DNA from: Candidatus Omnitrophota bacterium
GTDB taxonomy: Bacteria > Omnitrophota > Gorgyraeia > 2-01-FULL-45-10
Direction: 5' to 3'
Assembly: GCA_041650935.1 (NCBI GenBank)
Contig: JBAZKH010000001.1
Coordinates: 219,337 to 283,336 of the forward strand
Length of the DNA: 64,000 bases
The notes under the pieces were generated by a model. It made no database searches. It was not told the origin of the DNA and saw nothing but the letters and a program-made list of their open reading frames with translations. Every line of letters starts with the position of its first letter. The first letter of the stretch is position 1. The position numbers were made by a program, and so were the translations under genes. Positions 12,556 through 62,725 of this stretch are shown one piece after another.

Positions 12556-12590
12556 TTTCCACCCCGGGGTGGAAATGTGATGTGGCGAAC
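12556..12590. repeat. 20-nt perfect palindrome tttccaccccggggtggaaa plus adjacent box tgtgatgtggcgaac (degenerate relative of the MITE-like element)
   Basis: The palindrome core ttccaccccggggtggaa recurs in-frame at 49395 and 50727. gtgatgtggcga recurs in both MITE copies. Downstream cgaaaaaatccgaac (12619) resembles the MITE terminal repeat. Confidence 0.55.
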
Positions 12591-12636
12591 CACAGAGACA
12601 CATCGCATTAGACCGAATAACGAAAAAATCCGAACT

Positions 12637-14255: not shown

Positions 14256-14277
14256 TCAAAAAGCGAGGTAATATAAG

Positions 14278-14547: not shown

Positions 14548-14594
14548 AGTCCCCCCGGCAGTTCCCGCGGGGCGGATAACAGACAAAGGATAAA

Positions 14595-44200: not shown

Positions 44201-47200
44201 TCCCGCGCAGAATAAAGAGATTGTGGCGTTATTGGATGGATTGAGCTTTTTAGCGAAACCGGTAGAAATAACCAGTAAAATTTCAAATAGAGAGAATAGA
44301 ACTATATATGTACAATTTGTAACTAAGGAACAAGTTGAAATAGCTAGAAGGCAATCGGCTCGCAAAACAACTCAAGCGAGAGAATTTGTTCCAGTGGAAC
44401 AAATGTTAGATACCGGCATTCTCATCGTCCCCGGGGAAAACTTAGAGGATAAGGATCGTATAGGCGAAAAAGCGGAAGGACTTAAGAAAGCTTTCAATGG
44501 TATGGGATTTGAGAATGTAAGCATCGGGTCTCTCGATGCCGCGGCAAACTATGCCCATGTTGTGATATTTGTAGAGCCGGATGAGGAGACTTATGGCGCG
44601 TGGAATAGTACTTTTGAAACCGCGTCAAGGATGTATCCCGGGACTGAGATCTTTAAGTGGTCGACTAAAAGCGGAGGATTGTACCGGTGCTTTAAAGGTT
44701 GGGACGGGGAGCGCATTAAGGGGCACTGGACGGTTCCTGTGGCAGCGCAATATATCGCTCATAGCATAGAGTACGATTTTAAGTTCTACGTCGGCGACCG
44801 GTTTCGCTTTGCGTTCCCTCCGGAAGTGATCGACCTTCCAGCGGCAAAAAAATCTGGATACGATAATCCGGAGAGGACGGATCGGGCAGGATTAAAAGAA
44901 AAGATGGACAAACTCCTGAGAGCGGCCGAAACATATGTCGAGAAATCGAGCGCTTACGAAAAAGAGATCGTGGACCGCAGTGAACTCGCGTTCAATTCAC
45001 GGCCCGCGTATGAATTTGCAGACCGGGTGCCGCGCCTGATATTTGAAAACTTAAAGAGTGCGGGAGCTGAAGAAGCTCGCGGATTGAGTCTGCGGGAAGA
45101 CGATGAGATAAAGATACAATTTGGAGATGATGGCGAAATTTGGAATGCCGTTGTAGCAGAAGTGGACGAAGGCAGGGTCGTGTGCACTGTGCCGCAGGGC
45201 CTGGACCTGAAACAAGACCTTGGAAAGACCGGAAGAATAAAGAAGAGATATAACGATGTCCCGGCAAAGGTGCAATTAGAATTTTTGCAGTATGCCATGG
45301 AACCTGATAGCGGGCATGAGAGCCGTAAACCTCTCGTGGACATAGCGCTGGGCCTTCAGCCTAATCGAACTACAGATGGCAAAGATATTACCCGTAATGC
45401 AATTCTTTTCAACGATAAAGTCGGCAATAATGAAAATCAGCTCCAGATGGTATCGCAGGCGCTGAACGGCCGCTCCATAGAACTCGGCTGGGGGCCGCCG
45501 GGCACCGGCAAGACTCAGGCAGCGGCCGCCGAGGTAATATACCAGAATTGGTGCATGGGGAAGACCCAGCTCATAGCGGCGCAGACAAATAAGGCCGTGG
45601 ATAACCTTCTCCTTAAAGCGAAAGAGATGGGGATAAAAGTTTACAGGGTAGGTAATCATCCCGGAGTCATCGATCCGAAACTGCGCGAGAACTGGATATA
45701 CGCGGACAGGCCAAGAGAACCCCGCGAAGAAGATTTCAAGACGAACCAGGAGTATATTTCAGCCAGGCGCAAATATAAGGATGATTATGATGCATGGCGC
45801 ATGGCATTAGTGAATGAGATCGTATCCGGCAGGGCCATAGTTGGCGGCACGTGCATGGGTATTGCTATGGACAGGTTCATAAATAAGGAGCTGTTGGGCC
45901 ATTATCTGGAGGATTTCCGGTACTTTAAGTTCGACAGGTGCATTATCGAAGAGGCGAGCGTGGCATCCTTCGCGGAGCTATTGCTGGTTTTAGGCAAGGC
46001 CAAAGAGAAGGCTTTTATAATAGGCGATCACCATCAATTGGGATTATCTCCAATGCAACCGGAGCTTGTAGAGAGATTGAAAGCGGCCTCGCTGGGAAAA
46101 GATGAGATCGATGCGATGCAAACGAGCCTGTTTGAGTTTTTGCTCAACCAGGACCATTTTACCCTGACGATGCTTGAGGACTGTTACCGCCTGACCCCAC
46201 TGCAGGTTAAGTTGACCAATTTCTTCTATGATGGAAAACTGAAGGCGATGAGAGAGGTCTCTCCGGAACGAAATCGCGCATCCTTGGTTGTAATAGATAC
46301 TAAGAATGTGCCTCACAGCGATGAACAGATAGGCACGTCCTGGATCAATGGATACGAGGCCGACCTTGCGCTTGGAGTGATAGAGCGCCTGGGTAAGGCG
46401 GCGGATATGGATGTAGCGCACTTAGGACTGATAACGCCTTATAACGCTCAAATTACATATCTCAGAAATGAATTGAGGAAAGATATGCTGCGGAATTGGC
46501 CGGGCCGTGAAGCGTATGAGCGGATCTCGAGGGTCATGGGCAATGTAGGTACGGTATGGCCGTTCCAGGGGCGCGAGAAGCCGGTGATAGTAATTTCTCC
46601 GGTTTGCAGCAACTCGAGCGGCAGGACCGGATTTATGTCGTGGAAGATGTGGAACGTGATGACTTCCAGGGCGCAGGAATCTCTGATAGTAATTCTGGAT
46701 TCCGACACATTCCTGGCATCCCGCCAGGAAAAAGTACCGGAGTTTACAAGGCATATGCTCAAGCTTGCGAAAGAAGAGGGGACTTATATAGAGCTTACGC
46801 CCGGTAAGCCTAAACCCAACCTGTCAGGAATAGTTACTGTTTTAAAACAAACTTTAGCCGGTGAGTATAAAGGAAGACTCCCGCTATTTCCAGGAAGGTC
46901 TTCCGGAGGCACGCAAGGCCGGCCTGCTCCCGCCGCGCCGGCGGAGGGATCGGGCGAGGATAAAGAGAAAGGCCAGATCGCGCGCGGGGATCCTAAGGCG
47001 CTGGTCGATGCGTTATTGGCGCAGCCGATCAAGCCGATGAGGGGCTCAATAGATAAGCAATGGATATCGGAATCGCTGAAAAGAAGAGTGGGCCGTTCCC
47101 GGTTATCTTTACGTGAGAAGGCAATTATGCGCGCCAGGATAGATGATGTGCTGAAGAATAACCGCTTAGCCGAATTCGACGCGATAGTATTGAAAGACCA

Positions 47201-50200
47201 GGCCGATAGCAAACTTATCAAAGGATGGCTGCTGGGATTTAATACCCTGCCCAGGGCTCCCGATGCCGCAGGTGATGAACATTTAACCGCCCTCCAGAAA
47301 CGCCTCTCAATGCAGGGGAAACTATCCAATACTATAGGTCTCGCAACCCAGGCCCTCGATTATATCGGATGCGATGAGTCTCTCCTCCAGGAGTATCTAT
47401 TCCATGAATTTTTCTGCCCATATTTGGGTCATGAGCGGACAAGGATCACGCAAGAAGAGATATTCAAAGAAAATTATCCGCAAGGCTCTTCCACTGCCAT
47501 TGGGCTCGATACCCGCCCGGGCCACAAAGACGGCGAACTGTCGGCGGTATTGCAATTGGTTATAAGCGCTATGCATGATGGAGTGCCGGGGTCCCGGCCC
47601 GGATGGTATAGGAAAAAGAGCGGCCATACATATCTCATGAGGCCGCTATATCCCGAAAAAGCTGTTTCAAGGGCGAAGTTATTGGACCCCGCGGATGTAA
47701 GGATAGACCTGGGGAGCATAAGAAAATATATGGATGAACTTATGCGGAGCGGTAAAAGATTTATTGTCGTGACTTCGCCTCATGTTGTCGAACAGATGAG
47801 GGTTTGGGGATTCCCTTACTATAAGGAATTGCGCAAGAAAAGCATTCTTGTGAAATCCGTGCACTATAAATACATGGACGGGCGGTTGGGGCGTTACGTG
47901 AAAGACGCTCTTAAGATCGAAGACCGCCCGGATGTGATATTGGGGATAGGCATGGGATCCGTATCGGACTGGTCGAAGATCATGGGGCATAAATTTTCCT
48001 GTGATGTTACGTTGATCCCCAGCGCTCTTTCGACGAACGCGCCGTTTTCCGCGAATGTGGCCGTGCGCGATGAGAATAAGGACGGCGGGGAGTTCGGTGT
48101 ATATGGATGGCCTGCGGGCGCCGCGCGCACCGTTTGCGTCGACAGCAGTTTCATCTCCATGAACTGCCGCGGAAACCTGTCCGGAGCGGGGGATCTTATC
48201 AGCTGCTGGACGGCGCTTCTTGACTGGAGGTTTGCCTATGAACACGGCGCTGAGCCGAAGGATCCGGAAAGGGATAAGGTGTTTAAAGAGGCATTGGAGC
48301 ATCTTAACGAGCTAGCCGATACAGCCCCCCGCATCAACGCGAATACTCCCGATGGTATTGAGACGGCCGCGAGGCTTAATGCCAAAGTTTCCAGGCTGAT
48401 GACTAAGTTCGGTTCGGGCAGGCCCAAAGCCGGCAGTGAGCATATACTGTCGGATACTCTTGAAAGGGTGACCAGGCCCAGGAAGATACTTCATGGCGAG
48501 CAGGTGGGCGTATCGACTCTTATAATGATGTATCTCTATAGCAAAATTTACCGGCGAAAAGGCGGGAGATACCCGAAAAATGTTGATGTTAAAGATCTCT
48601 TTAAATTAGTTAAGGCCATGGGGATATCTTTGGACCTGGAAAGGATAGGGCTTACGAAAGATGATCTGGAAGAGGCGCTCATTTCCGCAGAACCCAGGCC
48701 GGGAAGATTTTCCTATTTCGATGTGAATAAAGTTACCCGCGAAGAAGCCCTCGAAGCCGTAAACGCGATCTTCCCGGATAAACCGGCTAGGCCTGCCGCG
48801 GCGGTAAACCCGGCCGCCAAAATTACCCGTCGTTCACTGACCCGGCCAGTGGATGGAGCGGATAACAAGGTTTCCGGGGCCTCTACGGTTGAGGTGACTG
48901 CGGAGGACCTTATGGGTTGGGAGAACGATGTCAGGGACAGGCTGGCGTATCTTAACGACAAGATCGGAGGCTTGGAAGATACGATAGGGATGCGCAAATC
49001 TGATGAGGTGAATCTCTCCCCGTTTAAGCGGGATGAGTATGATTATTACCCGCTTCATACGATAGAAAAACTTATCGATATTAAAGCGAAGTTTGAAGAG
49101 GAGCTCCGATGGGCGCGGAGATTTGAGCAGGTTATTCAGGCCGCCGCGCCGCGATCTTATGACTGGACCGCAGGTCCTGAAGTGACACGCGCGTATCCCG
49201 TATGGGCGCTCGGTAAATTCAATCCAAGATTAAGGAGGGCCTTTATACATTGGGGTATTATAACGGTCGGAGATTTAGTGAACCGGACACCCAAAGATAT
49301 TGTCTCTGCCTGGGATTGCGACAAAGGAATGCTTAAAGAGTTGCAAGCCAGGCTTAGCGAACGCGGCCTTGCGTTAAGAGAGGATCCGGTTAGTTTCCAC
49401 CCCGGGGTGGAAGATTCGAGCAGGGTGCCTCAAAATGGGACGTCTACGGGAATACTTTGGAATAATATCTGTCTTTTGGGTTATAATCCGCCGGAATATC
49501 CGGACGACAAGCCTCTAATTGTTACGGAAAAAGATTCATTGAACGCGGTTCGTGATTTCTTTACACGCGAAAATGGAAAAAATGCCACTTTTATTCTGTA
49601 TGATATTTTTAAAGAAGATATAAATCTCAACTCCATCCGTTCAATAACTGCATCGGGATGTCAGGCCGGATGGTTCTACCAGGTATATCGAGCCGCTATT
49701 GAATTGAATGACGGCAGGAGAGGAGTTGTTATTTTACAACTTCCAGCAAGGTATGGCGACAGAAACGAGCTTATCGCCACAGATTATAATAATTTACAGC
49801 ATCTGTATCGACTCCATCCGGGTATCGTAGTGCGTCCAATTTGTATTTCCGAAAGCCGTACAGGCAGAGACGATGGGACTTCTGCGCTTAATATTATTGC
49901 TGCCGAATGTTTAAGCGAATATATGGAACTCAATCCACGCCAATATTCGCCTTATGCTGTAGTGTCCCCTTATTATGGTTTCGAGCTTAATGCTTTCAGG
50001 CGAAGAGAGCCTGCCGCGCAATATCAGCTTGACGCCGATCGTCAGAATTCAGAAAACGTATTGAAAGGACTTGTAAAGAATATGGTTATTCTGGCGGACA
50101 TAAATCTCGAGACAGAAGCGGTAAGCTTTGTAAGTCAGATAGACATTGGCGCCGGTGATTTTATGGTAAGGCCGCGTGTTGACGGACAATTTGACGCTAA

Positions 50201-52184
50201 ACTCATTACCGCAAGACATATTGAGCGCAATGCCAGGCCGGAGGATTTTATGGAGTATCTTCTCCGCGGGCGTCTTTTCTTTAAGGCCAAACCATCTGGA
50301 TTTCAGGCAAAGCCAATTTTGGATGGCTTCGCACAAGGTTTAGCGGAGAGGTTCGGAGAAAAAGAAGGCGAAAGATATTACAGAAAATGGGTGAGATTGC
50401 TTATGAGAGAAACGGAAAGCAGGCTTGAGACATTGCAATCTTTATATTCTGCGCTTCAAGATGAACAAGGGCCGATATCAATACCGCCGATATTCGAAGC
50501 GTGGCTTAGAAAATATTCCGAAGAAGAGCTTTGTGAAACACGATTATATCCAAGGCAAAAAAGAGTTGTATTGGGATATTTGGATCACGGAAAGGATCGT
50601 GATAAGTTTCGTGAATTCATCAAAGAGGAAATAGGCGAGATACAAAACGTTACAGACGCTCTTTGGGAAACGATAGATCATGACTTTAGCCAGACCATCA
50701 GCCAACAAAATAAAATTACCTATAGTTTCCACCCCGGGGTGGAAGATTTAGGCGAGGGACAGGAGAAAACAGAACCGTCCCCAAGGCTGGCAGCATTTAT
50801 AATAGACGCAGTGACAGGCCGGCAAGTTGAAGCTGTGATAAGAGAGACTGAACCTGGCCACATTGTTGTAGAGGTGGATGGAGAAAAAGAAGGGCATCTT
50901 ACTTATACTATAGGTACATTCAAAGGGCAGAGCATGTTGTATATCAGAGATATTAATGTGGAACCGCGTAATCGGTTTAGCGCTAAACCGGAAAGAAGAT
51001 ATAAAGGCGTCGGGTTGAGGCTTATGCAAGCGGTTGCCGCGATCAGTTTAGAGTCTAATATAGCTAAAGGCGCGCTTCGTCTATCTTCAAGGAGAAATAA
51101 TAAAGATGCTCAAGCATTCTATGAGACTCTTGAGTATTTACGTTTCGCCAACAGGCGCGGGCTTTGGCGCTCTAAGTCCGAGCCTGGGGATGTTATGATC
51201 CAGTGGAACCTCAGGTCTCATGACGCCCGAACGTTCATCAATAACATCGAATCACTGATTAAGCGCGGTCATTTTAAGAATGGGGGCGGTCCGGAAAGAA
51301 CCGTCCTGAACCACTCCCCAGCACCCGAGGTACAAAGTGCAAGTGGTGCTGGATCGGGTTCAGGACAGTCCCCAGCCGCCAGCTTTACTGTGTCGGATGA
51401 GTCAGGGAAGATAGCGTCCGGCGTTCAAGCGCCGGTGCCGCAACCGGTGACTATGACAAATACTATCGCCGCGGAGCATTATATGACTTCGAGAGATGCC
51501 GGCTGGCAGCCTGCGGCTGCAGCGGTAACCGCAATAACGCCCGCGCCCGCAGCGCCTATGGCAATAGAAGGCAACGCGGCCGGCATTGTCGAATTGATAA
51601 ACGAGAGATTCAAAGACGTCAATGTCAAGAGCGGCGCCGGTGTGGTGCTTTCAGAGAACCTGTTCCTGGATAGCGAAGAGGACAGGGAGGAACTGGAGAG
51701 GATAAAGCTCGTCTTCGCCGAGGCAATAAAGAGCGGCGCTATGGCTATACTGAATCTTGAGGAGATACGGACAAGGGCCAAGAGAAGCTCGTCCAAGGAA
51801 AAATTGGCCGTAATACTGGCCAGGGAAGACTATGAGAGCGATAAAGCGCTGTGGGAAGGTAATGGCAAAATGGTCCCGGCGAAAGCGAGCGTCCTGATAT
51901 TGGGTGATAAACTGACAGGCGCGAACTATCTCTATCTGCAGGGCGTGGTCGGCCTGGCGAGGGCGATCATGTCGGGCAACGCTCAGGCGATCGGCTATTA
52001 TTATAAGGTGCTCGCCGGCGTGGATATAGACGACAGCGTTTTGAAACTTCTCGACTCTGCCGAGTGGAACAATATTGCTTTTGCGGTCAAGGCGATATTG
52101 AGTTTCAGAAGTTTGGGCAGGATAGACGACAAAAAATTTACCGCGCATCGGGAGAGGATGGAGACACTGCTTATAGCGGCGTAA
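23262..52184 (+). CDS. giant mosaic membrane-anchored protein (9,640 aa). Contains GDE-like, 2x GH13 and GH77 alpha-glucan enzyme domains; sigma-70 region 2 + 2x region 4; AT-hook; Upf1-like SF1 helicase; Fe-ADH/DHQS-like; RNAP alpha-CTD-like; GNAT
   Basis: A single uninterrupted 28,923-nt reading frame. N-terminal hydrophobic anchor (LPFAVRIIASILVVTFLAQDIVWA). The domain signatures are listed in the separate domain features. Confidence 0.85.
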   Translation: MMKAEEVLPKLSHHRLPFAVRIIASILVVTFLAQDIVWAHPDPFVDQSAQNNTLAPSTFFKLKDSKDRGGALFVEYLIERHPKFHSNISLIAIQHILEDKDILAWFDENKITCKPDYANGGQLGAISINIPTGYTFRYYDPDFDRENSFTCDPQSVIDSKELNPRLHKQIIRAGDKTATPTAQAQPEGPPATLATPLTREKAITHYTDKMGGYTWDNLGAKAQESLIAKYSALREIFHVFDPVWFLRQHINRSWKEELAHSLGIIAIWAGMALSFVIMTILTSSFLDIAYINAVPYAYPIAVPIALLADWLIHRACDMLVINYSVALSRGPDQYDFTNIVDAETLSNFVDKLQESQTYDYGEYDSRFLRPLFELLFTKLRQDFSGSEYFIAECRKVLAEKDSYELRRMMSGAFLKSFEKITQKPGTEKASVGFYGMLFYYLTRRPRPYFGHLYRTFIITRPEAQLAFGKRGRSYYSRGESAASYYRKGFLYGQYENPYFTSSIHMYETTSRADRRNTKNALKIQKALAIWQAEANRRDDWRMRRRINNFINRTTVLEIDVKTSLFFSDPENNVVRLIHAEGRRCALNLPAPYLARLRLDSENDDDMRELATYLNFGQELIDISGRVIKMEAGSEMDREARTIATVSFLNNTKDHFVSTDRLRRNLAAFMEEDTMSIYTDLARERFDREKEAESSLKAGIKGGEREQFARARDIYSRLMYRYDGAGMYSKAQESCDHMFSATEGAILHDRGVLTCPYSIENLFTALRFGRRDEFLSGLRTVTTGRGLPRYIERREVEIFKTMLSPSNEKRNSFQDDVLETLSAQAEAMDIEKTGSFMESAKSILHNYFGKKIDDRFGDLEPYEIEYPDLYYSAEKPVISIISGGHYISGEEVTRNAGIIIDAVRRRVPASSGRDYLSGGGIREIINSVSGRLDAHRSGFLPKERELLQTALKSLRVLNITELNSITLHSEKSPACPDLWMFGLNTSLPYHTKADLDELPAALNRDIREEFPNTLLLSSDILDSIENDKALLHEYILCVLLLSHVDQATSRYLRAALFPENQRDVKAQVLRRGEKFQTLNNVRMLEQIFGNRIASEEPSSDGPILTTPKTREKAIAYYTRKMGEREWNRLTSVDQELSIGKYAARREIFHLFNPIWFFRQHPNTSWKEELIRGLGIIAIWAGMTLSFVIVTAITSLLLDISYSSAVPYAYPIAVPIALLVNWLIHRTYNILAVKHKFAMLAAGDGSESDKLPSATDAERKKALDARLAAALRKLFFKDSRAMTALEAGLPHFSKKERGRDTAISLLGIIAAGWSAEAKDLILKWTGMEEGGLVPNVIRHDNNPQDDALYAAPPPTSDAALWLVEAVHKYIEKSGDRAMLDCVVDNKGKKVIDVLRNIYNRYSTPGGSDSVVCSDPATGFVWVRKKTTWMDTDSTERQGYPVEIQALWYNALNKMCSLDKSVAAEYKSLADKVKSNFHEYFWNSAESTVFDILGADGFETAAESKDRNRRDPAVRCNQIFTVYFGLAEGADAKRILESTKRRLLVPGGLKTLAAPERIYVQDTRDDGARAKDEAEGRVIGWPHAVYYKYYDSNKSADDRNKAYHNGTAWPWLYPFYWAAAVKCGSEAKDTSVDTMVKEYLELMSDPWTGGNASSGGSLPELLDAEASPAPDGRTKHYPKGCGEQAWSIACAIWGLDELSPAPVQPGRFTNGDNPKTKRSGIRYCRFKSDKIGISPIDALMGISQTAVLTPETRKDFSDIVRKVKAGINDREANGPIDEDASDFLDELIEEGRVRAAQMDFEAIYLDDILYIDEGLLADDKEDELVKCLREAVRTSARSGKLIIEVDAHGLANAFGTTIDNIPDIIMDGGLGDIPAKIIRSSDKAPGVLHLNPGYLHCDHRLIKDIWDWFAFELGADTVWLKGVWEESMLSRAMAKEWHRLDVAAGRDSPHAKRENGSRYDVYNYMVDKRLIGSGNGAANTNEAMRNFVKSCIKPKGLNIMLDFVTNQIAADAPCIFNDNTKNLVWSWDSDAEFYAHMRRLGRADWSDKRLEETFLIGAEVRGYREYSRVAKGMLSGTGGIRAMDEDELQIWINKGTLPPRFTSYRIVRHLENGSLTTALINYSEEVNRRYMGGIVNMMADMTLEGGIRGDIVHRAYWNKYFDDHLAPLGMSREEAGKKMPGEIMDELMADLRREHPGTRFLGEVHDSPGKDGNIKFFARMGERQGINATAYYKDYSDEVLSRGAAQNVRAYLFGVNDEEQRGRTTMFTNHDEATGLEALGSIERVRAAAGMCAMHGGPVLIPLTEILPERRPDELWPSDRGHPAHKNWRDSAVHIPQYDFTRLDVPLAGQCHFFGRPGFTKARRHWVNAECVRKFQEDIAVALENDEGIHAIVKPAYIDSLENSGLVAMIRRSRKEDLLTICNDSDVSTEIMICLDRVFGANSTEPPIEGELGKVLYSEGTKVYSGPRTLIVELPAYGYSNFSFRKTEASRKKEEAVKALVEEVHKRARAEEKTWAGNFYQHYRDRLGEREFGVVFEDALERLLFSGEDIERRGAAWIISHDEFLGPVALKQDWDRMKLEELFRPLEDRAVLPFVLAHETKGLWAITKFLEEVPSRKEHWIVAQLLAAAMSVTDMQLRTEIMKEVFSSMPVTLPSISGEGRLLMPSGTEETLMQQHYKQTSLVSVKKLTDMIGPELAAKIYLKRYGNHNNDEPAYEIAGEETNLTLKDAASKNGWIAANTSWSQANGNTLARQQLVKLKAESREAMDAFALTVGGEAYLLFFGDGHKGKILPESFEFLPEPDPAHNSPGLYILFDAWKKDSYGVVTKSGLISDGLPVDIPAGGQMILMLAPPEKERPEILQVSVEFLGGMDKLGDNLKQLLDDIYAAPGGIIWFVGAHPKGEIGKLLNDGPNLSGIYARDIEHGGRNYRVATHGPVKSVTSGDTASAFCVTDLKDPVVIGKMKTVLDALGRRRPITVFDLTGHLSIDSPVILEHPDWCRPFTGVLQEWRQGGIPENLKEEDILSMPGIWGWGFLLSVPLADPKKPLVEDPIVRKLTERGFVFGRDPLDKDRIRVLVCHHTSDFGPMPDIASLDLNHPEVRQYYLDTFRAWLEAGGNGFRIDLAYHFPSELLGLFKKRFPKLTCITEYYNVFGQMIDVHHRTGIDGFYDHEELWKKVRDSFSMADSSEPLQAWLFDFQKYLASGVFVHYLSNHDEDTALNIFGGDRRKYLAALAFIAFLPGYLMINFPDALGLMWRGYTDAAGKTKYDILRELPFAKFMRLARRANQGLDGETYEGLPYDVSLLGNVNNIVASRSADIFRKGIGFVVPRREDGIAWYKRTYHGKTAIVMINYSPLPKQVDLKRYITEPGINVGTAHFLPFESRIYFIEDGRLSTPRGIVNFNEFYRKALEEFYGDVSDGAWAERFCVMCRNEFQGRSDRDFRAVFRDIKSALRFMFRYGPDNVKSAADWMVKDHEKGLWEQFKYAIEADFYAMADQSDPDSPQARRILRGLLEDTATFPGLRDTAFGYVNNALGEAFNSGDVMRMRNIFYVEAGLLRQEDELSWAGKFIEKHKNSWAGKFDGTHKIDWRSDGLLLAFRDVVLAWNRSEGPMHDAAQWILYNLQSDFSAPFLGYYRLTIADINSRLERGERSTLGDMKDLLSEVAEIPGLAAQIGNDAIGGMHKGVPNLTNEDSLAGLLGMEASLLQQMHGSGWAKIFTENYKDKWQGPSGREQNRVFLAAFRNVALDWNSSNDESTSFAAKWMLYNPDSPYSAEFSRPYVEELDEIGRAFKKPGSPAFDALAAFLARADKISGLREHLTGKAIETVRGAAESCSGDRLKSLLRLEANFLKELRREGWAREFIESHRKQWKDHDFTDVILEWNRSEDVPTFAAAQWMLFGPDSNFSSVFFDKYKSDINDMLESVKKTPSEHGPEVSRTLELLLHDARYIRGLNKRLLEEMTQRINIGHAPEDIVFYCEIAAELARAQADPQLAARIFKLVQDARSHPPQPELSAFLMTYNLFILTVSFVTWLTGEMLGTNNLIGLYGMSGYLFAVFLPFAASILVHEFADYFATWIKTGERPYLPRFKGLSLQVTPSFEGQEIVNIGPYASAALTFIALPILYLAGVSPLFLAITAAYSFVHTIFSDNFLFLKAAAKKLGMLQATYWWNEKKHGGILCSLFSGKRKDDQGIGDLKWLDMFIDFADKQGADMIFLLPTTQINPGGIPGLSTPYGSISTFAQSAIMYLPLDEYLDKAKLGEYIDSFVAGDEAKRQKLLEALRSRKIDYPFIYAFKKHCWWQVFKDRYPGMSVDENTEFDSYVRQNRDWIEDYSLFHALFAKFDKAWWDWDDKYKNRDEKALDEARETCKEEISFYKYMQWLYDKRWKEVRVHAREKGKRIIGDMPLYPEPNSADVWAYQDLFIGSKRAGAPPEPGISDLGQKWQFWPYNWKYKSKEVLGFLEKRIRHMAQLYDGIRIDHVLGLLQEWNVDKSDEVKPTEGEWVPEDNKVAIKFGRKNLRRLAKVAARTNTLLIGEDIGGRDKSIIKMMDDVCERLPNFYLFHMIGWLEDKRQDKKHLWTFDAGHDQPCRFAFRWEEMKSVNNEIDMRGVRHFLASHGETIADSDTPEDVEKKVSRALRRMPFYSFTLQALLKAPKEARINSPGTQNFENWSWRSQDIEDLLEMEDLGYYYREEPLAVAEEKNNRGVGTPFAGDAAFSNDNVSVSSLIAGLGLKPGASQDDIDGVIIEAVNDPAGNDTLLQILGFNKTQREALAQALMPSPKVRSLFEKERNFAGIEYIVRVPGIKEARIESAREKVMLGIQCWHDYGHKFAKFVALAYNIKKGDKEDEVRGKIEKIMGEYAPILRDREFLEKMSDYFEHYPPVMLSLVYVLWAQIRAGPEEEIKPLTEALLKVSRINIGTPLEYIPYYKLIAVKYLALLGVDNTHSIIVPLAQHPQEDDFFRTAFQTLVFIAASNRLRSLFDFVGPKADPKAARLAVRIVVAAHPADSVYAKFLDLAAQYPDAEVRRMAEEAKEKAFPSSAAPWEIDDQANRAADPNDGLTPTDMWGEEDLSGKAPQKEDGEIYQQVQLMLQVAPPVLVEVTNIKVWKRLLQELGHKGEAYFLGETDDMPLKTTAAWANKIYPEHTSEDVQHIYEDATRIPLANMFKMFVFGDFPAVKFHERLHAAMSLRALKEGTLYRKEDDSVFNGTERNDAKALKALSGKYDDAREAFRGLESALSNYPGGELSQELFAWLGTIDRYPDFIGKPSFPEGSEEAEYLKHYFDPKKRSTAVMLEPTRQFIAVARRHPEIVEFLRQYYGRLQKFTQETAPFLGFTSGQIAAAFGGYAPRNGGGGAGMVLGWAPLKKRHGWLPTSWMLFLPIFGLYVVDWNRGINRPEPPEIPVFENGHAGGELFCLSKKRAMIPVAGAVKVKRDGEYIVFYHENEADVLYTKDGEEARIKVISEDQNSGIAIIEENNNICGFNGENVAYATRAVLNREVEFFRERRLRHYAAAPLTAKKKEPIDDPVSLNRRVTEDVSHNLKRLTRDGLVFMDICAGLFKLIKKRPPSNYAELSRWVDSKDHSNTPFPAREDLDYDLDALMEGHSSFSLIRQRLNFPAVDISEYNWLRQGWAVLCPELITLLKEYGNDRQKGYAAMWDHLNELSSAAKIVMVGNALEEEVRIRRELSEGERLELVKIKLLSKLAVEHPGVLIGIVRQLYGLRYYHELGIIEDMYARIECDIPLEIKDIVIDASQKIDIAKKLHRIYGLPLEEGLYCVTDEEINGRLKEKFLTAENSNRLSFEKLKNLIMVLDNFVNAPPYSKSAKVSAKKDLRFNDYERASNIVHRLRAIDEHRFAVTLQRLERVVSRWEERVDRQGAYSQAGLVKLLWTFWHSTNIGEEMARYTTDMIGKPPVFTDLKYNIIFGIEDDVSAGPKKSKAKPGRPRGSYKKKAGKDSIEPGMLDAVLAVGRWWYNKVKKLGLDEEDLRDRTALNIAPWLEETVKGIIFAGIYALLCCYNPAHPLLNIAMFTVMDIGVGIVFTLLHLDSARAPPQTPRDILIAPALISLFDAIMFPLAVIVTTLTVSNSILIVIAIMMIAIPQVTIFHYEINRRVYELRKEGANLGYAMLGGDKPSAAAGEAVSDPSGSANITRRIADILSDGRPRAREKLVRMFKGSIPSDQVMDAIDKMIELRDITEDGSVLRSESSLVSPEELLIRDAVRFMADAGYPISPKRNEYLSAEDERRLVEDGSEKSKHILLLSQLLWIKSHAEYLHRRNRGIPVIDFMHAGIKAVNDVLNEEDAATRFDPSKSRLSTYVKRPITWKMAKLVEKKSPLRLQSISHDKELAYRDAGPMPQASRAQKDEIRKLLLYVDERESEIIQLFFGLNGVSLSPEEISVLYKGRLLPDSIQNSVSNILKKLGLPKDGGQGCVAPLSPSQREHLFSLKTIRMVEDFMNNPQRADRLAPRDREVIRLMYGLEGRQTLSSRSTAGLLGIAHSRVDQLRDRAMSKIRKEYESTWEEASRMAGGITEEEMCLAHEEAIRKLQFDDDFTPNGNLPTVYEFALELPHRAENLSVKMVKRLIDIYNLRHPAAPLEFRGYSTPGTLGEPEPLPVTDGLRESAGYSMEALVNGEVLTPRANFVSLIARQKALAYSIEQGDLPRVKSQVTQAITRLSMRARNLQAGKVARKLVGSPAVKLANNKNLLGNAVGYLQKLVEAGMVFSSEPAGTDIPACALGSAALVLEERLLQGDALIFDLMLAKEGYTLYANSVGSKRDAFDKEARGMMAAFAVYCTFSGDERKHLESIYVLKDGTGKKKLGFLPLLKNIYDKAVINEAFDIEGPIKEYVKGAYPGIENEESFKLTREDLSVGSQNDLLPAYDPEFLKSTRRHPCNITELPDGFNYSRIVSVGTKSVVVKVYKPKAGSTDYDLLSIKYYNDFQGEGTITLTAKTGGEYTLGGEGGLPCYDAAGMIAHLNGTRVALRAILDPAQNKEIVALLDGLSFLAKPVEITSKISNRENRTIYVQFVTKEQVEIARRQSARKTTQAREFVPVEQMLDTGILIVPGENLEDKDRIGEKAEGLKKAFNGMGFENVSIGSLDAAANYAHVVIFVEPDEETYGAWNSTFETASRMYPGTEIFKWSTKSGGLYRCFKGWDGERIKGHWTVPVAAQYIAHSIEYDFKFYVGDRFRFAFPPEVIDLPAAKKSGYDNPERTDRAGLKEKMDKLLRAAETYVEKSSAYEKEIVDRSELAFNSRPAYEFADRVPRLIFENLKSAGAEEARGLSLREDDEIKIQFGDDGEIWNAVVAEVDEGRVVCTVPQGLDLKQDLGKTGRIKKRYNDVPAKVQLEFLQYAMEPDSGHESRKPLVDIALGLQPNRTTDGKDITRNAILFNDKVGNNENQLQMVSQALNGRSIELGWGPPGTGKTQAAAAEVIYQNWCMGKTQLIAAQTNKAVDNLLLKAKEMGIKVYRVGNHPGVIDPKLRENWIYADRPREPREEDFKTNQEYISARRKYKDDYDAWRMALVNEIVSGRAIVGGTCMGIAMDRFINKELLGHYLEDFRYFKFDRCIIEEASVASFAELLLVLGKAKEKAFIIGDHHQLGLSPMQPELVERLKAASLGKDEIDAMQTSLFEFLLNQDHFTLTMLEDCYRLTPLQVKLTNFFYDGKLKAMREVSPERNRASLVVIDTKNVPHSDEQIGTSWINGYEADLALGVIERLGKAADMDVAHLGLITPYNAQITYLRNELRKDMLRNWPGREAYERISRVMGNVGTVWPFQGREKPVIVISPVCSNSSGRTGFMSWKMWNVMTSRAQESLIVILDSDTFLASRQEKVPEFTRHMLKLAKEEGTYIELTPGKPKPNLSGIVTVLKQTLAGEYKGRLPLFPGRSSGGTQGRPAPAAPAEGSGEDKEKGQIARGDPKALVDALLAQPIKPMRGSIDKQWISESLKRRVGRSRLSLREKAIMRARIDDVLKNNRLAEFDAIVLKDQADSKLIKGWLLGFNTLPRAPDAAGDEHLTALQKRLSMQGKLSNTIGLATQALDYIGCDESLLQEYLFHEFFCPYLGHERTRITQEEIFKENYPQGSSTAIGLDTRPGHKDGELSAVLQLVISAMHDGVPGSRPGWYRKKSGHTYLMRPLYPEKAVSRAKLLDPADVRIDLGSIRKYMDELMRSGKRFIVVTSPHVVEQMRVWGFPYYKELRKKSILVKSVHYKYMDGRLGRYVKDALKIEDRPDVILGIGMGSVSDWSKIMGHKFSCDVTLIPSALSTNAPFSANVAVRDENKDGGEFGVYGWPAGAARTVCVDSSFISMNCRGNLSGAGDLISCWTALLDWRFAYEHGAEPKDPERDKVFKEALEHLNELADTAPRINANTPDGIETAARLNAKVSRLMTKFGSGRPKAGSEHILSDTLERVTRPRKILHGEQVGVSTLIMMYLYSKIYRRKGGRYPKNVDVKDLFKLVKAMGISLDLERIGLTKDDLEEALISAEPRPGRFSYFDVNKVTREEALEAVNAIFPDKPARPAAAVNPAAKITRRSLTRPVDGADNKVSGASTVEVTAEDLMGWENDVRDRLAYLNDKIGGLEDTIGMRKSDEVNLSPFKRDEYDYYPLHTIEKLIDIKAKFEEELRWARRFEQVIQAAAPRSYDWTAGPEVTRAYPVWALGKFNPRLRRAFIHWGIITVGDLVNRTPKDIVSAWDCDKGMLKELQARLSERGLALREDPVSFHPGVEDSSRVPQNGTSTGILWNNICLLGYNPPEYPDDKPLIVTEKDSLNAVRDFFTRENGKNATFILYDIFKEDINLNSIRSITASGCQAGWFYQVYRAAIELNDGRRGVVILQLPARYGDRNELIATDYNNLQHLYRLHPGIVVRPICISESRTGRDDGTSALNIIAAECLSEYMELNPRQYSPYAVVSPYYGFELNAFRRREPAAQYQLDADRQNSENVLKGLVKNMVILADINLETEAVSFVSQIDIGAGDFMVRPRVDGQFDAKLITARHIERNARPEDFMEYLLRGRLFFKAKPSGFQAKPILDGFAQGLAERFGEKEGERYYRKWVRLLMRETESRLETLQSLYSALQDEQGPISIPPIFEAWLRKYSEEELCETRLYPRQKRVVLGYLDHGKDRDKFREFIKEEIGEIQNVTDALWETIDHDFSQTISQQNKITYSFHPGVEDLGEGQEKTEPSPRLAAFIIDAVTGRQVEAVIRETEPGHIVVEVDGEKEGHLTYTIGTFKGQSMLYIRDINVEPRNRFSAKPERRYKGVGLRLMQAVAAISLESNIAKGALRLSSRRNNKDAQAFYETLEYLRFANRRGLWRSKSEPGDVMIQWNLRSHDARTFINNIESLIKRGHFKNGGGPERTVLNHSPAPEVQSASGAGSGSGQSPAASFTVSDESGKIASGVQAPVPQPVTMTNTIAAEHYMTSRDAGWQPAAAAVTAITPAPAAPMAIEGNAAGIVELINERFKDVNVKSGAGVVLSENLFLDSEEDREELERIKLVFAEAIKSGAMAILNLEEIRTRAKRSSSKEKLAVILAREDYESDKALWEGNGKMVPAKASVLILGDKLTGANYLYLQGVVGLARAIMSGNAQAIGYYYKVLAGVDIDDSVLKLLDSAEWNNIAFAVKAILSFRSLGRIDDKKFTAHRERMETLLIAA
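23828..24260 (+). other. giant ORF: duplicated module A, copy 1 (TREKAI..Y..KMG...WKEEL...GIIAIWAGM, with TM helices)
   Basis: ~140-aa module repeated at 26571-26980 with high amino-acid identity and extended nucleotide identity. Confidence 0.7.
26571..26980 (+). other. giant ORF: duplicated module A, copy 2
   Basis: TTPKTREKAIAYYTRKMG...SWKEELIRGLGIIAIWAGMTLSFVIVTAITSLLLDISYSSAVPYAYPIAVPIALLVNWLIHR parallels copy 1. Confidence 0.7.
27230..28340 (+). other. giant ORF: (alpha/alpha)6-barrel glycoside hydrolase domain, glycogen-debranching-enzyme (GDE_C / amylo-alpha-1,6-glucosidase)-like
   Basis: YHNGTAWPW hallmark, upstream GLVPNVIRHD...YPVEIQALWYNAL, downstream GCGEQAWS. Confidence 0.6.
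28900..30720 (+). other. giant ORF: GH13 alpha-amylase-family module 1 (divergent) with C-terminal beta-sandwich domain
   Basis: Region I-like MLDFVTNQ, region II-like GGIRGDIVH, region III FLGEVHD, region IV FTNHDE. A domain-C-like segment follows: LVAMIRRSRKEDLLTICNDSD...TLIVELPAYGYSNFSF. Confidence 0.45.
32250..33420 (+). other. giant ORF: GH13 alpha-amylase-family module 2 with domain C
   Basis: DLNHPEVRQYYLDTFRAWLEAGGNGFRIDLAYH (region II, nucleophile Asp), ITEYYN (region III Glu), YLSNHDE (region IV), LPGYLMINFPDALGL. Domain C: IAWYKRTYHGKTAIVMINYSPLPKQVDL. Confidence 0.7.
33640..35150 (+). repeat. giant ORF: four tandem ~145-aa repeats (W.(E/K)F.E.H...W......D..L.WNRSE....AA.WML..PDS.FS)
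   Basis: Repeat starts at ~33650, 33940, 34378 and 34813, i.e. a period of ~435 nt. Confidence 0.65.
35275..35740 (+). other. giant ORF: internal transmembrane block 1 (about 4-5 predicted helices)
   Basis: LSAFLMTYNLFILTVSFVTWL ... AALTFIALPILYLAGVSPLFLAITAAYSFV. Confidence 0.55.
35763..37100 (+). other. giant ORF: GH77 4-alpha-glucanotransferase (amylomaltase/MalQ-like) domain
   Basis: GIGDL, STPYGS, DMPLYPEPNSADVWAYQDLF, GAPPEPGISDLGQKWQFWPYNW, RIDHVLG, LLIGEDIGG. These match the conserved GH77 blocks in order. Confidence 0.75.
41040..41100 (+). other. giant ORF: AT-hook-like motif (KKSKAKPGRPRGSYKKK)
   Basis: GRP core flanked by basic residues. Confidence 0.45.
41255..41570 (+). other. 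giant ORF: internal transmembrane block 2
   Basis: IIFAGIYALLCCY..., IAMFTVMDIGVGIVFTLL, ILIAPALISLFDAIMFPLAVIVTTLTV, ILIVIAIMMIAIPQV. Confidence 0.55.
42040..42790 (+). other. giant ORF: sigma-70-family-like module (region 2 followed by two region-4-like HTH segments)
   Basis: GIPVIDFMHAGIKAVNDVL...RFDPSKSRLSTYVKRPITWKMAK compares to sigma region 2 (DLIQEGNIGLMKAVEKFDP..FSTYATWWIRQ). SEIIQLFFGLNGVSLSPEEISVLYKG...SIQNSVSNILKKL and REVIRLMYGLEGRQTLSSRSTAGLLGIAHSRVDQLRDRAMSKIRK compare to region 4. Confidence 0.6.
45440..46720 (+). other. giant ORF: SF1 helicase domain, Upf1/DNA2-like (AAA_11/AAA_12)
   Basis: Walker A GPPGTGKT, IEEAS (motif II), IGDHHQLG (III), ITPYNAQ, TVWPFQGREK (V), VMTSRAQESLIVI (VI). 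Confidence 0.75.
47750..48730 (+). other. giant ORF: Fe-dependent alcohol dehydrogenase / glycerol dehydrogenase / dehydroquinate-synthase-like domain
   Basis: RFIVVTSPHV..., ILGIGMGSVSDWSKIM (GGGS-like loop), LIPSALSTNAPFS, HGEQVGVST. Confidence 0.5.
49195..49385 (+). other. giant ORF: RNA polymerase alpha-subunit C-terminal-domain-like helix-hairpin-helix
   Basis: LGKFNPRLRRAFIHWGIITVGDLVNRTPKDIVSAWDCDKGMLKELQARLSERGLAL aligns with alpha-CTD [53 protein letters not shown]. Confidence 0.55.
50790..51175 (+). other. giant ORF: C-terminal GNAT N-acetyltransferase-like domain
   Basis: Motif A RYKGVGLRLMQAV and motif B AQAFYETLEY. Confidence 0.6.
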
Positions 52185-52186: not shown

Positions 52187-52225
52187 ATTTTCTTGCCGGG
52201 TGAAAATTTCACCCGGCAAGAAAAT
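52187..52225 (+). terminator. 39-nt perfect palindrome immediately after the giant ORF stop (attttcttgccgggtgaaaatttcacccggcaagaaaat); likely bidirectional terminator
   Basis: Core cttgccgggtga...tcacccggcaag is identical to the leader palindrome at 23144-23167; convergent with thpR on the - strand. Confidence 0.6.
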
Positions 52226-52316
52226 ATTCAAATTTGGTGCCCGGGCAACCGGGATAAGGGAAGCCTTTCCCCCGAGTTAGGCGACCTTTATCCCGACCCG
52301 GGCGCTGTTTTTGTGT

Positions 52317-55448: not shown

Positions 55449-55925
55449 TTGGAAAATAGTAAAATCAAAAAGAGGGCTCTAAATAATGCCTATGCGCTCC
55501 TGCGGCAGAGGCCGAGGAGCGAATTCGAGATACGCAGCCGCCTCAAGCTAAAAGGGTATAACGGTGAGGTAGTCGATCTTGTCGTAGAGGATCTGAGACG
55601 TCTCGGTGAGATCGACGACGCGAGATTTGCCAAGCTCTGGGTCGACAACCGTATGCACCTGAACCCGGTCGGCGATGTCATTCTCCGTCATGAGCTGAAG
55701 GCTAAGGGCGTAAACGAGGCGATAATCGAGGCCGCATTGGCAAAGAAGGCCGGTGAGTATGATGAGTACGGCCTGGCGCTTAATATGGCCCGCGAGCAAT
55801 TCGGCCGGTTCAAGAAACTGGATCGTAAGAAGGCATTGAAGCGGGTGTATGATTTTCTGCTCAGGCGCGGATTCAAATTCGAGACGGTGCAAAAGATTGT
55901 GGAAGATGTCGTAGGGGACGTTTAA
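55449..55925 (+). CDS. recX: regulatory protein RecX
   Basis: RecX repeat family immediately after recA; TTG start; stop codon embedded in hairpin ggggacgtttaaacgtcccc. Confidence 0.8.
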   Translation: MENSKIKKRALNNAYALLRQRPRSEFEIRSRLKLKGYNGEVVDLVVEDLRRLGEIDDARFAKLWVDNRMHLNPVGDVILRHELKAKGVNEAIIEAALAKKAGEYDEYGLALNMAREQFGRFKKLDRKKALKRVYDFLLRRGFKFETVQKIVEDVVGDV

Positions 55926-55950
55926 ACGTCCCCTACGATGTGGATAACTT
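55915..55950. repeat. 36-nt intergenic unit: perfect-palindrome hairpin ggggacgtttaaacgtcccc + tacgatgtggataactt (contains the TGTGGATAA 9-mer, the reverse complement of the DnaA box TTATCCACA)
   Basis: A near-identical copy lies at 58513-58550 after alaS; a variant lies at 62726-62765. Confidence 0.7.
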
Positions 55951-58513: not shown

Positions 58514-58550
58514 GGGACGTTTAAACATCCCCTGCGTTGTGGATAACTTC
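58513..58550. repeat. second copy of the hairpin + TGTGGATAACTT unit (ggggacgtttaaacatcccc-tgcgttgtggataactt)
   Basis: Direct repeat of 55915-55950 with 3 mismatches; overlaps the alaS stop codon and precedes the hisD RBS. Confidence 0.7.
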
Positions 58551-62719: not shown

Positions 62720-62725
62720 AAGACA

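Follow-up and report, generated by a model that had tools for sequence, protein, structure and literature searches.

The locus analyzed here raises the question why one and the same short DNA palindrome is found twice, in frame and with identical codons, within a giant open reading frame (ORF) for a multi-enzyme protein, and a third time in a non-coding spacer of the same window, i.e. the whole stretch of 64 kb that was analyzed.

Palindrome copies in the window and their protein context

The 18-nt palindrome TTCCACCCCGGGGTGGAA is present in three exact copies in the window, two of them within the giant ORF (Table 1) and one at 12557-12574. In 100 dinucleotide shuffles no match to it was obtained, even when two mismatches were allowed, corresponding to 0 copies expected by chance. 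The initial annotation had listed these three copies, an identical 25-mer starting at 49392 and 50724 that encodes SFHPGVED in frame both times, and a non-coding location of the third copy between nrnA and truB. All of this was confirmed, and the identity between the two ORF copies was found to extend to 26 nt. Both are read in frame 0 of the ORF, with SFHPGVED at residues 8711 and 9155, 444 codons apart. The third copy is located between the stop codon of the DHH/DHHA1 (nrnA-like) gene at 12523 and the ATG of truB at 12637. Two of the three copies are therefore inside an ORF, and the third is in the classic position of a REP, just 3' of a gene.

In size and shape the unit corresponds to REPs, which are G+C-rich, stem-loop-forming palindromes of ~20-40 nt: it is a perfect palindrome of 18-20 nt and gives an 8-bp stem in the local RNA fold. 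The local RNA hairpin predicted for copy 1 has an energy of -23.2 kcal/mol (z = -2.7), that for copy 2 one of -16 kcal/mol. The copies in the window are singlets and not the inverted doublets of a REPIN (two inverted REPs with a short spacer), and the perfect palindrome is without orientation. Their flanks are TAGT/GATT and CTGT/ATGT. A stop codon is absent from all frames of the palindrome.

Degenerate copies with up to four mismatches were not found elsewhere in the giant ORF. Two further HPGV peptides, at residues 5700 and 7466, were rejected as REP copies, since they use other codons and are inside folded domains. That the two copies derive from a repeat within the protein was likewise rejected, since apart from the 8-mer the only exact-peptide repeat is an N-terminal duplication unrelated to it; self-BLASTP of the giant protein returned the self-match alone and was uninformative. 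No Rfam family matched any palindrome copy or the nearby MITE-like elements, and only a tRNA-Pro scored.

The giant ORF encodes GDE_C, alpha-amylase, GH77, sigma70_r4, SF1 helicase, Fe-ADH and GNAT domains. The module bracketed by the two palindrome copies shows a weak match to a protein-kinase-like fold. A word-index homologue search with residues 8601-9300 gave no matches; relatives of the module were found by exhaustive HMMER search. They include stand-alone proteins of 340-440 aa as well as parts of other giant proteins, and the homology covers query residues 31-443 of 452, with both palindrome copies outside. In the predicted structure, copy 1 lies in a linker with pLDDT<50 (model residues 13-38) and copy 2 at the place where the folded module passes into a low-confidence stretch (model residues 470-494). 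In the surroundings of sequences closely related to the flanking modules, no REP copies were detected.

As a separate observation, homologues of the conserved C-terminal region of the giant protein form the ends of 354- and 689-aa proteins in relatives, with the same downstream synteny. This shows modular accretion, but no REP is present there.

Table 1. Features of the window that are relevant for the palindrome copies
Feature	Position	Strand	Remarks
Candidate REP copy 1 in giant ORF	49391..49416	.	palindrome 49395-49412; encodes (V)SFHPGVED
Candidate REP copy 2 in giant ORF	50723..50748	.	palindrome 50727-50744; encodes (Y)SFHPGVED
Candidate intergenic REP copy	12556..12575	.	20-nt perfect palindrome, spacer between nrnA-like gene and truB
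Giant multi-enzyme ORF	23262..52184	+	9,640 aa
Module bracketed by the two copies	49446..50722	+	folded domain, ~425 aa
Low-GC3 block	49428..51147	+	change-point analysis; GC3 0.38 vs 0.58 outside
GNAT acetyltransferase domain	50838..51131	+	Pfam PF00583, E 8.5e-5; just 3' of copy 2
Small inverted repeat	12575..12610	+	AATGTGATGTGGCGA ... ACACATCGCATT; abuts the intergenic copy

The palindrome flanks RAYT-type genes in other genomes

The 18-mer is strongly enriched in Omnitrophota and Beckwithbacteria, with 33 genome loci and more than 100 metagenome stretches. Among the genome loci, at least 10 belong to three Beckwithbacteria MAGs, and four Omnitrophota MAGs contain 5 copies. In one Beckwithbacteria MAG at least 6 exact copies were counted, groups of 3-5 units are found within 2 kb, and at four CPR loci (L013 and L048 among them) tandem units are 20-30 nt apart. 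The 18-mer is absent from viral contigs.

Exact pairs of the 18-mer flank genes for proteins of ~220 aa, with one copy from a few to ~25 nt upstream and the other ~5-10 nt downstream. Such genes were found in Omnitrophota (L010/L039), in L126, and in CPR (L017 with its copies L070, L081, L113 and L116, as well as L064, where the downstream copy has one mismatch). Thus, the palindrome is present on both sides of RAYT-type genes in four divergent lineages. In the window no RAYT gene was detected (tblastn E > 0.6). The two transposases tested (L010 and L017) match Pfam Y1_Tnp with E 1e-9 and the NCBIfam model 'REP-associated tyrosine transposase' (REP_Tyr_transpos) with E 2.7e-17 and 63 bits, which is below the equivalog cut-off of 80, whereas with the IS200 model no more than E 9e-4 was reached. 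The sole PDB sequence match of the L010 protein is 4ER8, E. coli TnpA-REP, with the HUH (HIHLV) and RYVHLNP motifs aligned. Both are thus Y1 HUH enzymes nearer to RAYTs than to IS200. The RAYTs of L010, L126 and L017/L064 are only 35-42% identical to each other, yet the palindrome is common to all of them. The same CPR genomes also encode a second RAYT family, and its flanking palindrome is a different one.

Most palindrome copies are located away from any RAYT gene. Among low-GC loci, ~60 distinct ones carry the palindrome as compared to ~5 with the gene, so that the repeat is not essentially restricted to the gene ends as in IS200/IS605 elements. In low-GC contigs, ~32 copies are coding and 29 are intergenic or at a gene or contig edge, as judged by an ORF-length heuristic; about half are thus inside ORFs and the distribution is not predominantly extragenic near gene 3' ends. 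The coding copies in these contigs use all three frames (13:11:8). Outside the window the flanks are AAYA/TRTT in CPR and AAAAAG/CTTTTT in L010, and neither end of the palindrome carries GTAG or CGTC, the tags that mark the REP superfamilies in PMC3733652.

Presence and absence of the unit could be observed in two comparisons. A relative (69% nucleotide identity) carries the REP at the ribF 3' end, where the window lacks ~29 nt, and an extra 18-nt palindromic unit in L013 as compared to L048 constitutes a clean in-frame 6-codon indel. In CPR IMPDH a native loop is taken up by the palindrome while the length stays the same (FHPGVE vs TYPEIT/DYPDLP), so that not every copy is a simple insertion.

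Origin and role of the copies in the giant ORF

A syntenic, partly homologous giant ORF is present in the Omnitrophota MAG contig JBAYMS010000014.1. It contains three palindrome copies in the same frame and with similar flanks, located around gene-sized modules. The ORF copies of the window and those of the orthologue share AGT before and RAT..G.GC after the palindrome; the intergenic copies lack these flanks. The protein context of the two window copies is therefore not wholly unrelated, as had been stated on the basis of the window sequence. The three same-frame copies in the orthologue suggest that the ORF copies are not necessarily two fresh insertions. Judging from the sequences, they look like an old linker-resident subfamily (AGT-REP-RAT) that was spread by duplication or recombination. 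The single frame and the shared flanking codons of all five copies fit descent from one linker, but also some constraint at the peptide level. The earlier proposal of a mobile REP-like unit that tolerates in-frame coding was thus right as to the kind of element, given the flanking of RAYT genes, the presence/absence variation and the share of low-GC copies in ORFs, whereas its being inserted twice is not supported by the shared flanks and the copies of the orthologue.

We therefore consider it probable, with a probability of about 0.75, that the palindrome represents a REP, namely the DNA hairpin belonging to a Y1 transposase family of the RAYT type, and that two copies are tolerated in linkers of the giant ORF as a related subfamily. 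The 18-nt palindrome would be the cognate hairpin of a REP-associated HUH/Y1 tyrosine transposase family in Omnitrophota and CPR Beckwithbacteria, with a RAYT presumably encoded in the source genome as well. E. coli TnpA-REP and the IS200/IS605 enzymes bind their hairpin in single-stranded DNA and cut beside it. By analogy, the RAYT would bind the hairpin in single-stranded DNA and cut beside it, by which copies would be dispersed and maintained. Two of these would have become embedded in frame in disordered linkers on either side of the gene-sized kinase-like module, and would be related to each other and to the three in the orthologous ORF. They could persist there because the palindrome can be read without a stop codon in each frame and its translation (FHPGVE) would be harmless in a flexible linker. 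In-frame intragenic REPs have been documented in Opitutus terrae and Rickettsia conorii (PMC3733652). The ORF copies are presumably without function for the host, and a secondary peptide or RNA role may exist. Points against the REP assignment are the lack of a RAYT in the window and of a GTAG/CGTC tag, the single frame and shared flanking codons in the giant ORFs, the peptide-level junction motifs of relatives (GARLA, SSSPV) and the IMPDH copy without length change.

Among the alternatives, it is unlikely that the same-phase REPs are junctions which move gene-sized modules into or between giant ORFs, analogous to exon shuffling, by RAYT action or hairpin recombination, with the kinase-like block (plus GNAT) as a recent import. 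The REP-bounded segments are indeed gene-sized in both orthologous ORFs: the one in the window has 444 aa, those of the orthologue have 386 aa (Methyltransf_28) and 606 aa. This layout mirrors the REP-gene-REP arrangement around RAYT genes. The kinase-like module has the lowest GC (0.428) and GC3 (0.379) among all 1.3-kb intervals of the giant ORF, and the left edge of the low-GC3 block coincides with copy 1 (change-point within 12-36 nt). Furthermore, these modules are found elsewhere in other protein contexts that lack the REP, and the identity of the copies ends at 26 nt, as at recombination joints. However, the right edge of the block is the end of the GNAT domain, ~400 nt past copy 2, GC3 steps are absent at the copies of the orthologue, the window has no RAYT, no empty-site or excised-segment variant was seen, and only two of the module junctions of the ORF carry the palindrome while most do not.

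A role of the hairpin in the giant mRNA, be it ribosome pausing at module boundaries, an exonuclease block or a processing site, similar to E. coli REPs stabilizing upstream mRNA, appears quite unlikely. In the sense strand, 8 bp pair into a stable stem closed by a 4-nt loop, the three changes in the orthologue copy at nt 6295 are G.U-compatible or in the loop on this strand, and a function as RNA has been argued for many REPs in published surveys. Translating ribosomes unwind such stems, however, and a C to G change in another orthologous copy breaks the stem. The z-scores are modest (-1.6 and -2.7), and neither ORF copy is followed by a T-run, a start codon or a Shine-Dalgarno sequence.

That SFHPGVED is itself functional, as a linker signal or polyprotein protease site, with the DNA palindrome being incidental, is very unlikely. 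All five giant-ORF copies are read in a single frame, preceded by S/N and followed by D/N/T, one orthologous copy carries two synonymous changes, and it has been proposed that giant proteins are cleaved (bioRxiv 10.1101/2023.11.21.568195). In relatives, junction motifs are kept at the peptide level (GARLA 11 times, SSSPV 9 times); these and ERVAQG are not DNA palindromes, as their codons vary. A linker or processing motif of this type should show amino-acid conservation with freely varying codons, whereas the two copies of the giant ORF agree at all 26 nt. Under selection for the peptide alone, the use of the same non-preferred codons at 8 codon positions would have P = 4.5e-5, which argues strongly against the conserved peptide that the initial annotation had offered as a second possibility. 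In addition, the 18-mer lies in non-coding DNA at 12557 and beside RAYT genes, is read in all three frames in CPR genes, is present at just 2 junctions of a 9,640-aa protein, and has non-synonymous changes (P to A, E to G) in orthologous copies. The palindrome is probably kept at the level of DNA (or of an RNA hairpin), not as a peptide motif.

Highly improbable is a word over-represented by a genome-wide drive, similar to DNA uptake sequences or HIP1 and linked to a methyltransferase or uptake receptor, that would arise by point changes in place. In IMPDH the 18-mer replaces the native loop at unchanged length, coding copies are frequent in all frames, and CCCGGG is several-fold over-represented in the CPR loci, but this would leave unexplained why four divergent RAYT genes are closely bracketed by paired copies, why the second RAYT family has a palindrome of its own and why clean 18-nt and ~29-nt indels occur. 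A chance repeat or an assembly artefact has a negligible probability: the window probably stems from a metagenome assembly, but the shuffles contained no match, the frame is open across both junctions and the same arrangement is found in the independently assembled orthologous contig.

Comparison with known repeat systems

With the REP/REPIN-RAYT systems (E. coli TnpA-REP, PDB 4ER8; Pseudomonas REPINs; PMC3116915, PMC5581495) the palindrome shares the short G+C-rich hairpin, apparently dispersed in many copies, the location of one repeat on both sides of a Y1/HUH transposase gene whose product, in the two cases tested, matches RAYT models better than IS200, and the separate palindrome of another RAYT family. 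Unusual traits are the perfect 18-20-nt palindrome without GTAG/CGTC tag, the singlets in the window instead of inverted doublets, the intragenic location of about half of the copies in low-GC contigs, and the identity of the 18-nt core across two phyla and RAYTs of only 35-42% identity. The intragenic REPs of Opitutus terrae and the Rickettsia palindromic elements (PMC3733652) are similarly read through in frame in seemingly functional genes, sometimes twice per ORF. RPE-1 of Rickettsia has 100-150 bp and no known transposase (PMC3733652), whereas the unit described here has 18-26 nt, is found where modules of the giant multi-enzyme ORF meet and is associated with a RAYT.

IS200/IS605 elements also consist of a Y1 HUH transposase flanked by hairpins, and the REP-gene-REP unit here measures ~720 bp. 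In our case the hairpin is far more often found without the gene, both ends carry the same palindrome, and the IS200 model gives E 9e-4 vs 3e-17. HIP1 of cyanobacteria and DNA uptake sequences comprise 8-12 nt, lack a link to a flanking transposase gene and show no unit-sized indels. Shared with them is the over-representation of a specific word in coding and non-coding DNA, with some coding copies keeping the length (IMPDH). Correia elements and MITEs are likewise small non-autonomous repeats that can be co-transcribed or read through, but MITEs have terminal inverted repeats, a 70-300-bp body and target-site duplications, whereas the unit here is the hairpin alone.

Overall, the palindrome appears to be a selfish repeat of a known kind, found in new hosts and in an unusual place. 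A REP-RAYT system is hereby identified in two little-studied ultra-small bacterial groups, Omnitrophota and CPR Beckwithbacteria, for which none of the consulted papers mentions such a system. The palindrome also provides a concrete sequence marker for the joints between modules in the giant multi-enzyme genes of Omnitrophota, and may bear on how these are assembled and processed. If the REP joints are points of recombination or transposition, the growth of giant genes should be testable with population metagenomes, and module shuffling, if true, would explain how giant Omnitrophota ORFs accrete modules; if they are not, the palindrome would be another selfish hairpin tolerated in protein linkers.

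The intergenic copy has further small repeats as neighbors. The box TGTGATGTGGCGA, reported in the initial annotation to be shared between the surroundings of this copy and MITE-like elements, was indeed found exact at 12576-12588, 8327-8339 and 7366-7378 (minus strand). The adjoining small inverted repeat contains a 15-nt box common to the MITE-like elements at 7221-7475 and 8293-8525. The 870-aa ORF at 8536-11148 beside these elements encodes a DHH-CBS-PolyA_pol protein, which corrects its earlier description.

A palindromic repeat and its associated transposase genes

The 18-nt perfect palindrome TTCCACCCCGGGGTGGAA was found at exactly the three places in the window where the initial annotation had located it, and none of 100 dinucleotide-preserving shuffles of the window contained a match, even with up to two mismatches allowed. 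The palindrome contains no stop codon in any frame and is thus widely tolerated in coding DNA. In a scan of one genome per species, 33 loci carried the 18-mer, whereas chance alone would give about 9 occurrences of such a word in 596 Gb. The excess is found in Candidatus Beckwithbacteria of the CPR group (three MAGs with at least 10 loci between them) and in Candidatus Omnitrophota (5 copies in 4 MAGs). A metagenome scan yielded at least 101 further stretches with the 18-mer, mostly of the same CPR-like type.

Pairs of the 18-mer about 700 bp apart bracket a gene of about 220 codons, one copy preceding the gene start by a few to about 25 nt and the other following the stop by about 5-10 nt. 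The proteins of the loci L010 and L017, the two tested, match Pfam Y1_Tnp (E 1e-9) and the NCBIfam model "REP-associated tyrosine transposase" (RAYT; E 2.7e-17), the latter far better than the IS200 model (E 9e-4). The sole PDB sequence match of the L010 protein is 4ER8, E. coli TnpA-REP, with the HUH and catalytic-Tyr motif (RYVHLNP) aligned. Pairwise identity between the L010, L126 and L017/L064 proteins is only 35-42%, while the 18-mer is identical in all. A Y1 transposase gene bracketed by a genome-dispersed repeat is the defining REP-RAYT layout (PMC3116915, PMC5581495). In the 64-kb window itself no RAYT gene was found. The palindrome is best classed as a repetitive palindrome (REP) whose RAYT family is new for Omnitrophota and CPR. 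In contrast to described REP families, it lacks a GTAG/CGTC tag and does not lie mainly outside genes, and its copies in the window stand singly instead of as REPIN doublets. By an ORF-length heuristic, about 32 copies at de-duplicated low-GC loci lie within ORFs and 29 are intergenic or at an edge. The initial annotation had asked whether genic copies are always in-frame and in one orientation; those at the low-GC loci use all three frames (FHPGVE 13, xPPRGGx 11, xSTPGWx 8).

The same CPR genomes also contain a second RAYT-like family, bracketed by a different palindrome, CCTGCAGGGTCCAACCCTGCAGG or CCTACAAGG..CCTTGTAGG, and thus two REP-RAYT pairs coexist in one small CPR genome. The members of this second family on the CPR contigs L045, L060 and L070/L081 are 28-34% identical to the first family and carry their own palindrome, CCTGCAGGGTCCAACCCTGCAGG or CCTACAAGGTTGGACCTTGTAGG, on both sides.

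Palindrome copies, repeats and related features (window positions unless a locus or the orthologue is named)
Feature	Position	Details
Giant ORF	23262-52184 (+)	9,640 codons
REP copy 1, giant ORF	49391-49416	18-mer from 49395, 25-mer from 49392; peptide at residue 8711
REP copy 2, giant ORF	50723-50748	18-mer from 50727, 25-mer from 50724; peptide at residue 9155
Third REP copy	12556-12575	20-nt perfect palindrome, 18-mer from 12557; 113-nt spacer between DHH/DHHA1 (nrnA-like) gene and truB
Orthologue copy	nt 6295	TTTCACCCTGGGGTGGGA; three changes against the 18-mer
Orthologue copy	nt 7453	exact 18-mer
Orthologue copy	nt 9271	TTCCACGCCGGGGTGGAA; one change against the 18-mer
REP-bracketed genes	L010/L039 (Omnitrophota); L126; L017 and its copies; L064	L064 downstream copy with one mismatch
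Low-GC3 block	49428-51147	two-breakpoint fit
GARL motif	P0002; P0035 (L138 3001-7122)	11 copies in P0002 (0.2 expected), 3 in P0035
SSPV motif	P0036 (L139 3001-8922 and 989-3016)	9 copies (0.03 expected)
ERVAQG motif	P0001 (L137 2001-13040)	3 copies
N-terminal duplication	23842-24227; 26572-26957	74-75% nt identity, 910 codons apart
C-terminal relatives	L135 547-1611; L136 655-2724	354 and 689 aa
REP units, Sua5/YrdC-TsaE junction	L013 6206; L048 4447
REP units, TsaD loops	L048 2322; L048 2636
XerC/D-type recombinase gene	6290-7177
MITE-like elements	7221-7475; 8293-8525	long arms inverted relative to each other (75 nt, 85%; 37 nt, 84%)
Orphan ORF	7478-8254	258 aa, AT-rich; no Pfam match
TTGCCGGGTGAA..TTCACCCGGCAA family	23144-23167; 52187-52225	24-nt perfect; 19-nt arms
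Hairpin	52238-52312	about 70 nt, with T-run
CGTAGGGGACGTTTAAACGTCCCCTACG family	55909-55950; 58509-58549; 62725-62765	28-30-nt palindrome, then (A/G)TTGTGGATAACTT

Copies and modules in the giant ORF

The identity between the two giant-ORF copies, initially described as a 25-mer and exact as such at both sites, extends over 26 nt and ends there. Both copies lie in frame 0 and encode SFHPGVED, 444 codons apart. If the peptide alone were selected, the chance of the second copy using the same eight codons would be 4.5e-5, and several of these codons are non-preferred (AGT 11%, GGG 19%, CCC 22%, CAC 24%). Thus, the unit under constraint is the nucleic acid.

The contig JBAYMS010000014.1 of a Candidatus Omnitrophota MAG is syntenic with the window, with flanking DNA 65-87% identical, and the organism of the window is therefore a relative of this MAG. 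Its orthologous giant ORF, read as 10.1 kb merged from L021 and L061, contains three palindrome copies, all in the FHPGVE frame, separated by 386 aa (a Methyltransf_28 module) and then 606 aa. One copy is exact, one carries three changes, of which two are synonymous, and one replaces Pro by Ala. The REP core is changed at 4 of 54 positions in the orthologue and at none in the window ORF copies, whereas the flanks have diverged. All five ORF copies have common flanks, ART before and RMT-KMG-RGC-xAK-GKG after, which the intergenic copies lack. The five thus derive as paralogous pieces from one kind of linker, about 12 codons long, and their protein context is not wholly unrelated, contrary to the initial description. 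Of the proposed double in-frame insertion, the in-frame copies stand. The comparison speaks against an 18-20-nt unit having been freshly inserted twice in separate events, with P ~2e-4 for the six extra flank bases to agree by chance. It speaks for a putative old linker-resident subfamily, which would have spread by duplication or recombination and then been kept or homogenised at the DNA level.

A role of the palindromes as mRNA hairpins is possible but unlikely: on the sense strand, each change in the orthologue copy at nt 6295 either allows a G.U pair or falls in the loop, but neither window ORF copy is followed by a terminator, start codon or Shine-Dalgarno signal.

As delimited by homology, the stretch between the two copies shows itself to be a discrete module: in an exhaustive profile search, matches begin at query residue 31-43 and end at 442-443 of 452. 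The module recurs at differing positions in other giant proteins (including ones of 3,679, 6,037, 2,827 and 6,836 aa) and also occurs on its own, in proteins of 340-440 aa. In all 6 homologues inspected (P0001-P0003, P0005-P0007), SFHPGVED was absent from the module edges. In an AlphaFold model of aa 8690-9200 (mean pLDDT 75.5), residues ~40-465 form a confident domain, with both SFHPGVED motifs inside or bordering stretches of pLDDT <50 (model residues 13-38 and 470-494). The fold weakly resembles protein and small-molecule kinases (E 2e-4, TM 0.3-0.4). With a GC of 0.428 and a GC3 of 0.379, the module is the lowest of any 1.3-kb segment in the 29-kb ORF (GC3 mean 0.535, sd 0.051). The low-GC3 block starts within 12-36 nt of REP copy 1 and extends on the right as far as the GNAT domain does, some 400 nt past REP copy 2; no GC3 step of this kind was found in the orthologous giant ORF. 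Close relatives of the flanking modules sit in other proteins without any REP, and thus modules move between contexts. The low-GC3 block at REP copy 1 and this mobility keep alive, without establishing it, the idea that REP joints take part in module gain, which we consider improbable.

A function of SFHPGVED as a peptide is disfavoured by the DNA-level identity of the copies and by the existence of non-coding copies and copies in other frames. In its favour, junction motifs of related proteins vary in their codons and are thus kept at the peptide level, as candidate processing or linker signals. These motifs, GARL, SSPV and ERVAQG, are lineage-specific and, where inspected, lie between modules of other Omnitrophota multi-module proteins.

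With GDE_C, alpha-amylase, GH77, sigma-70 region 4, SF1 helicase, Fe-ADH and GNAT domains, the giant ORF falls into the "multi-enzyme" class that has been reported among the very long proteins of Omnitrophota (bioRxiv 10.64898/2026.06.07.730766). In related contigs with the same downstream synteny, two proteins of ordinary length have as their C-terminus the final ~200 residues of its product, and thus the ORF appears to have grown by module addition upstream of a conserved C-terminal domain. The N-terminal internal duplication encodes hydrophobic, membrane-like segments (LGIIAIWAGM, AVPYAYPIAVPIALL).

Presence or absence of the unit, and coding copies elsewhere

Window 13102-14815 has a 69% identical counterpart in the 1.7-kb contig L043, in which the palindrome sits at the ribF 3' end, immediately before conserved rpsO promoter-like hexamers; about 29 nt are missing from the window at this place. 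L013 and L048 differ, in a CPR gene for a Sua5-TsaE fusion, by one palindromic unit, TAAACACCCCGGGGTGGT, which only L013 has in addition; the indel is clean, comprises 18 nt or six codons and falls where the two domains join. The RAYT-gene flanks, these unit-sized indels and the coding copies in all frames bear out in kind the initial reading of a mobile REP-like palindrome. On these contigs, as many as five CACCCCGGGGTG cores lie in a stretch of 2.2 kb. Two REP units fall in loops of the CPR TsaD, which appears to be about 6 residues longer there than E. coli TsaD, as judged against the unaligned E. coli sequence.

The exact 18-mer also occurs in CPR genes for IMP dehydrogenase: two divergent groups of orthologues (L035/L040/L058/L075/L092 and L097/L112) carry it in a conserved loop, and FHPGVE of the CPR enzyme aligns gap-free to TYPEIT/DYPDLP of solved IMPDHs. 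With no change in length, simple insertion would not explain these copies. A DUS- or HIP1-like drive maintaining the palindrome would account for them, but is very unlikely, as it leaves the RAYT flanks and unit-sized indels unexplained. REPs within coding DNA have been reported before, in Opitutus terrae and as Rickettsia palindromic elements (PMC3733652). In-frame REPs are thus a known phenomenon, and the interest here is in the module-junction position in a giant gene and the conservation of the core across phyla.

Other repeats in the window

The third REP copy adjoins a 15-nt box, AATGTGATGTGGCGA, common to both MITE-like elements, as initially described. These elements bracket the orphan ORF directly downstream of the recombinase gene, a layout that would suit an invertible or integrated cassette. 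The TTGCCGGGTGAA..TTCACCCGGCAA palindromes stand on either side of the giant ORF, with about 95 nt between the first and the ORF start and 3 nt between the stop and the second. Between the giant ORF and a convergent ligT-like gene, the conserved hairpin, for which Rfam gave no match, is 81-87% identical in L061 and L135, compared with about 65-68% for the flanking genes, and is a candidate small RNA or conserved terminator. Members of the CGTAGGGGACGTTTAAACGTCCCCTACG family occupy the short gaps that follow recX, alaS and a histidine-biosynthesis gene of the His_biosynth family; the repeat includes GTAG/CTAC and may represent a GTAG-type REP of the classical kind.
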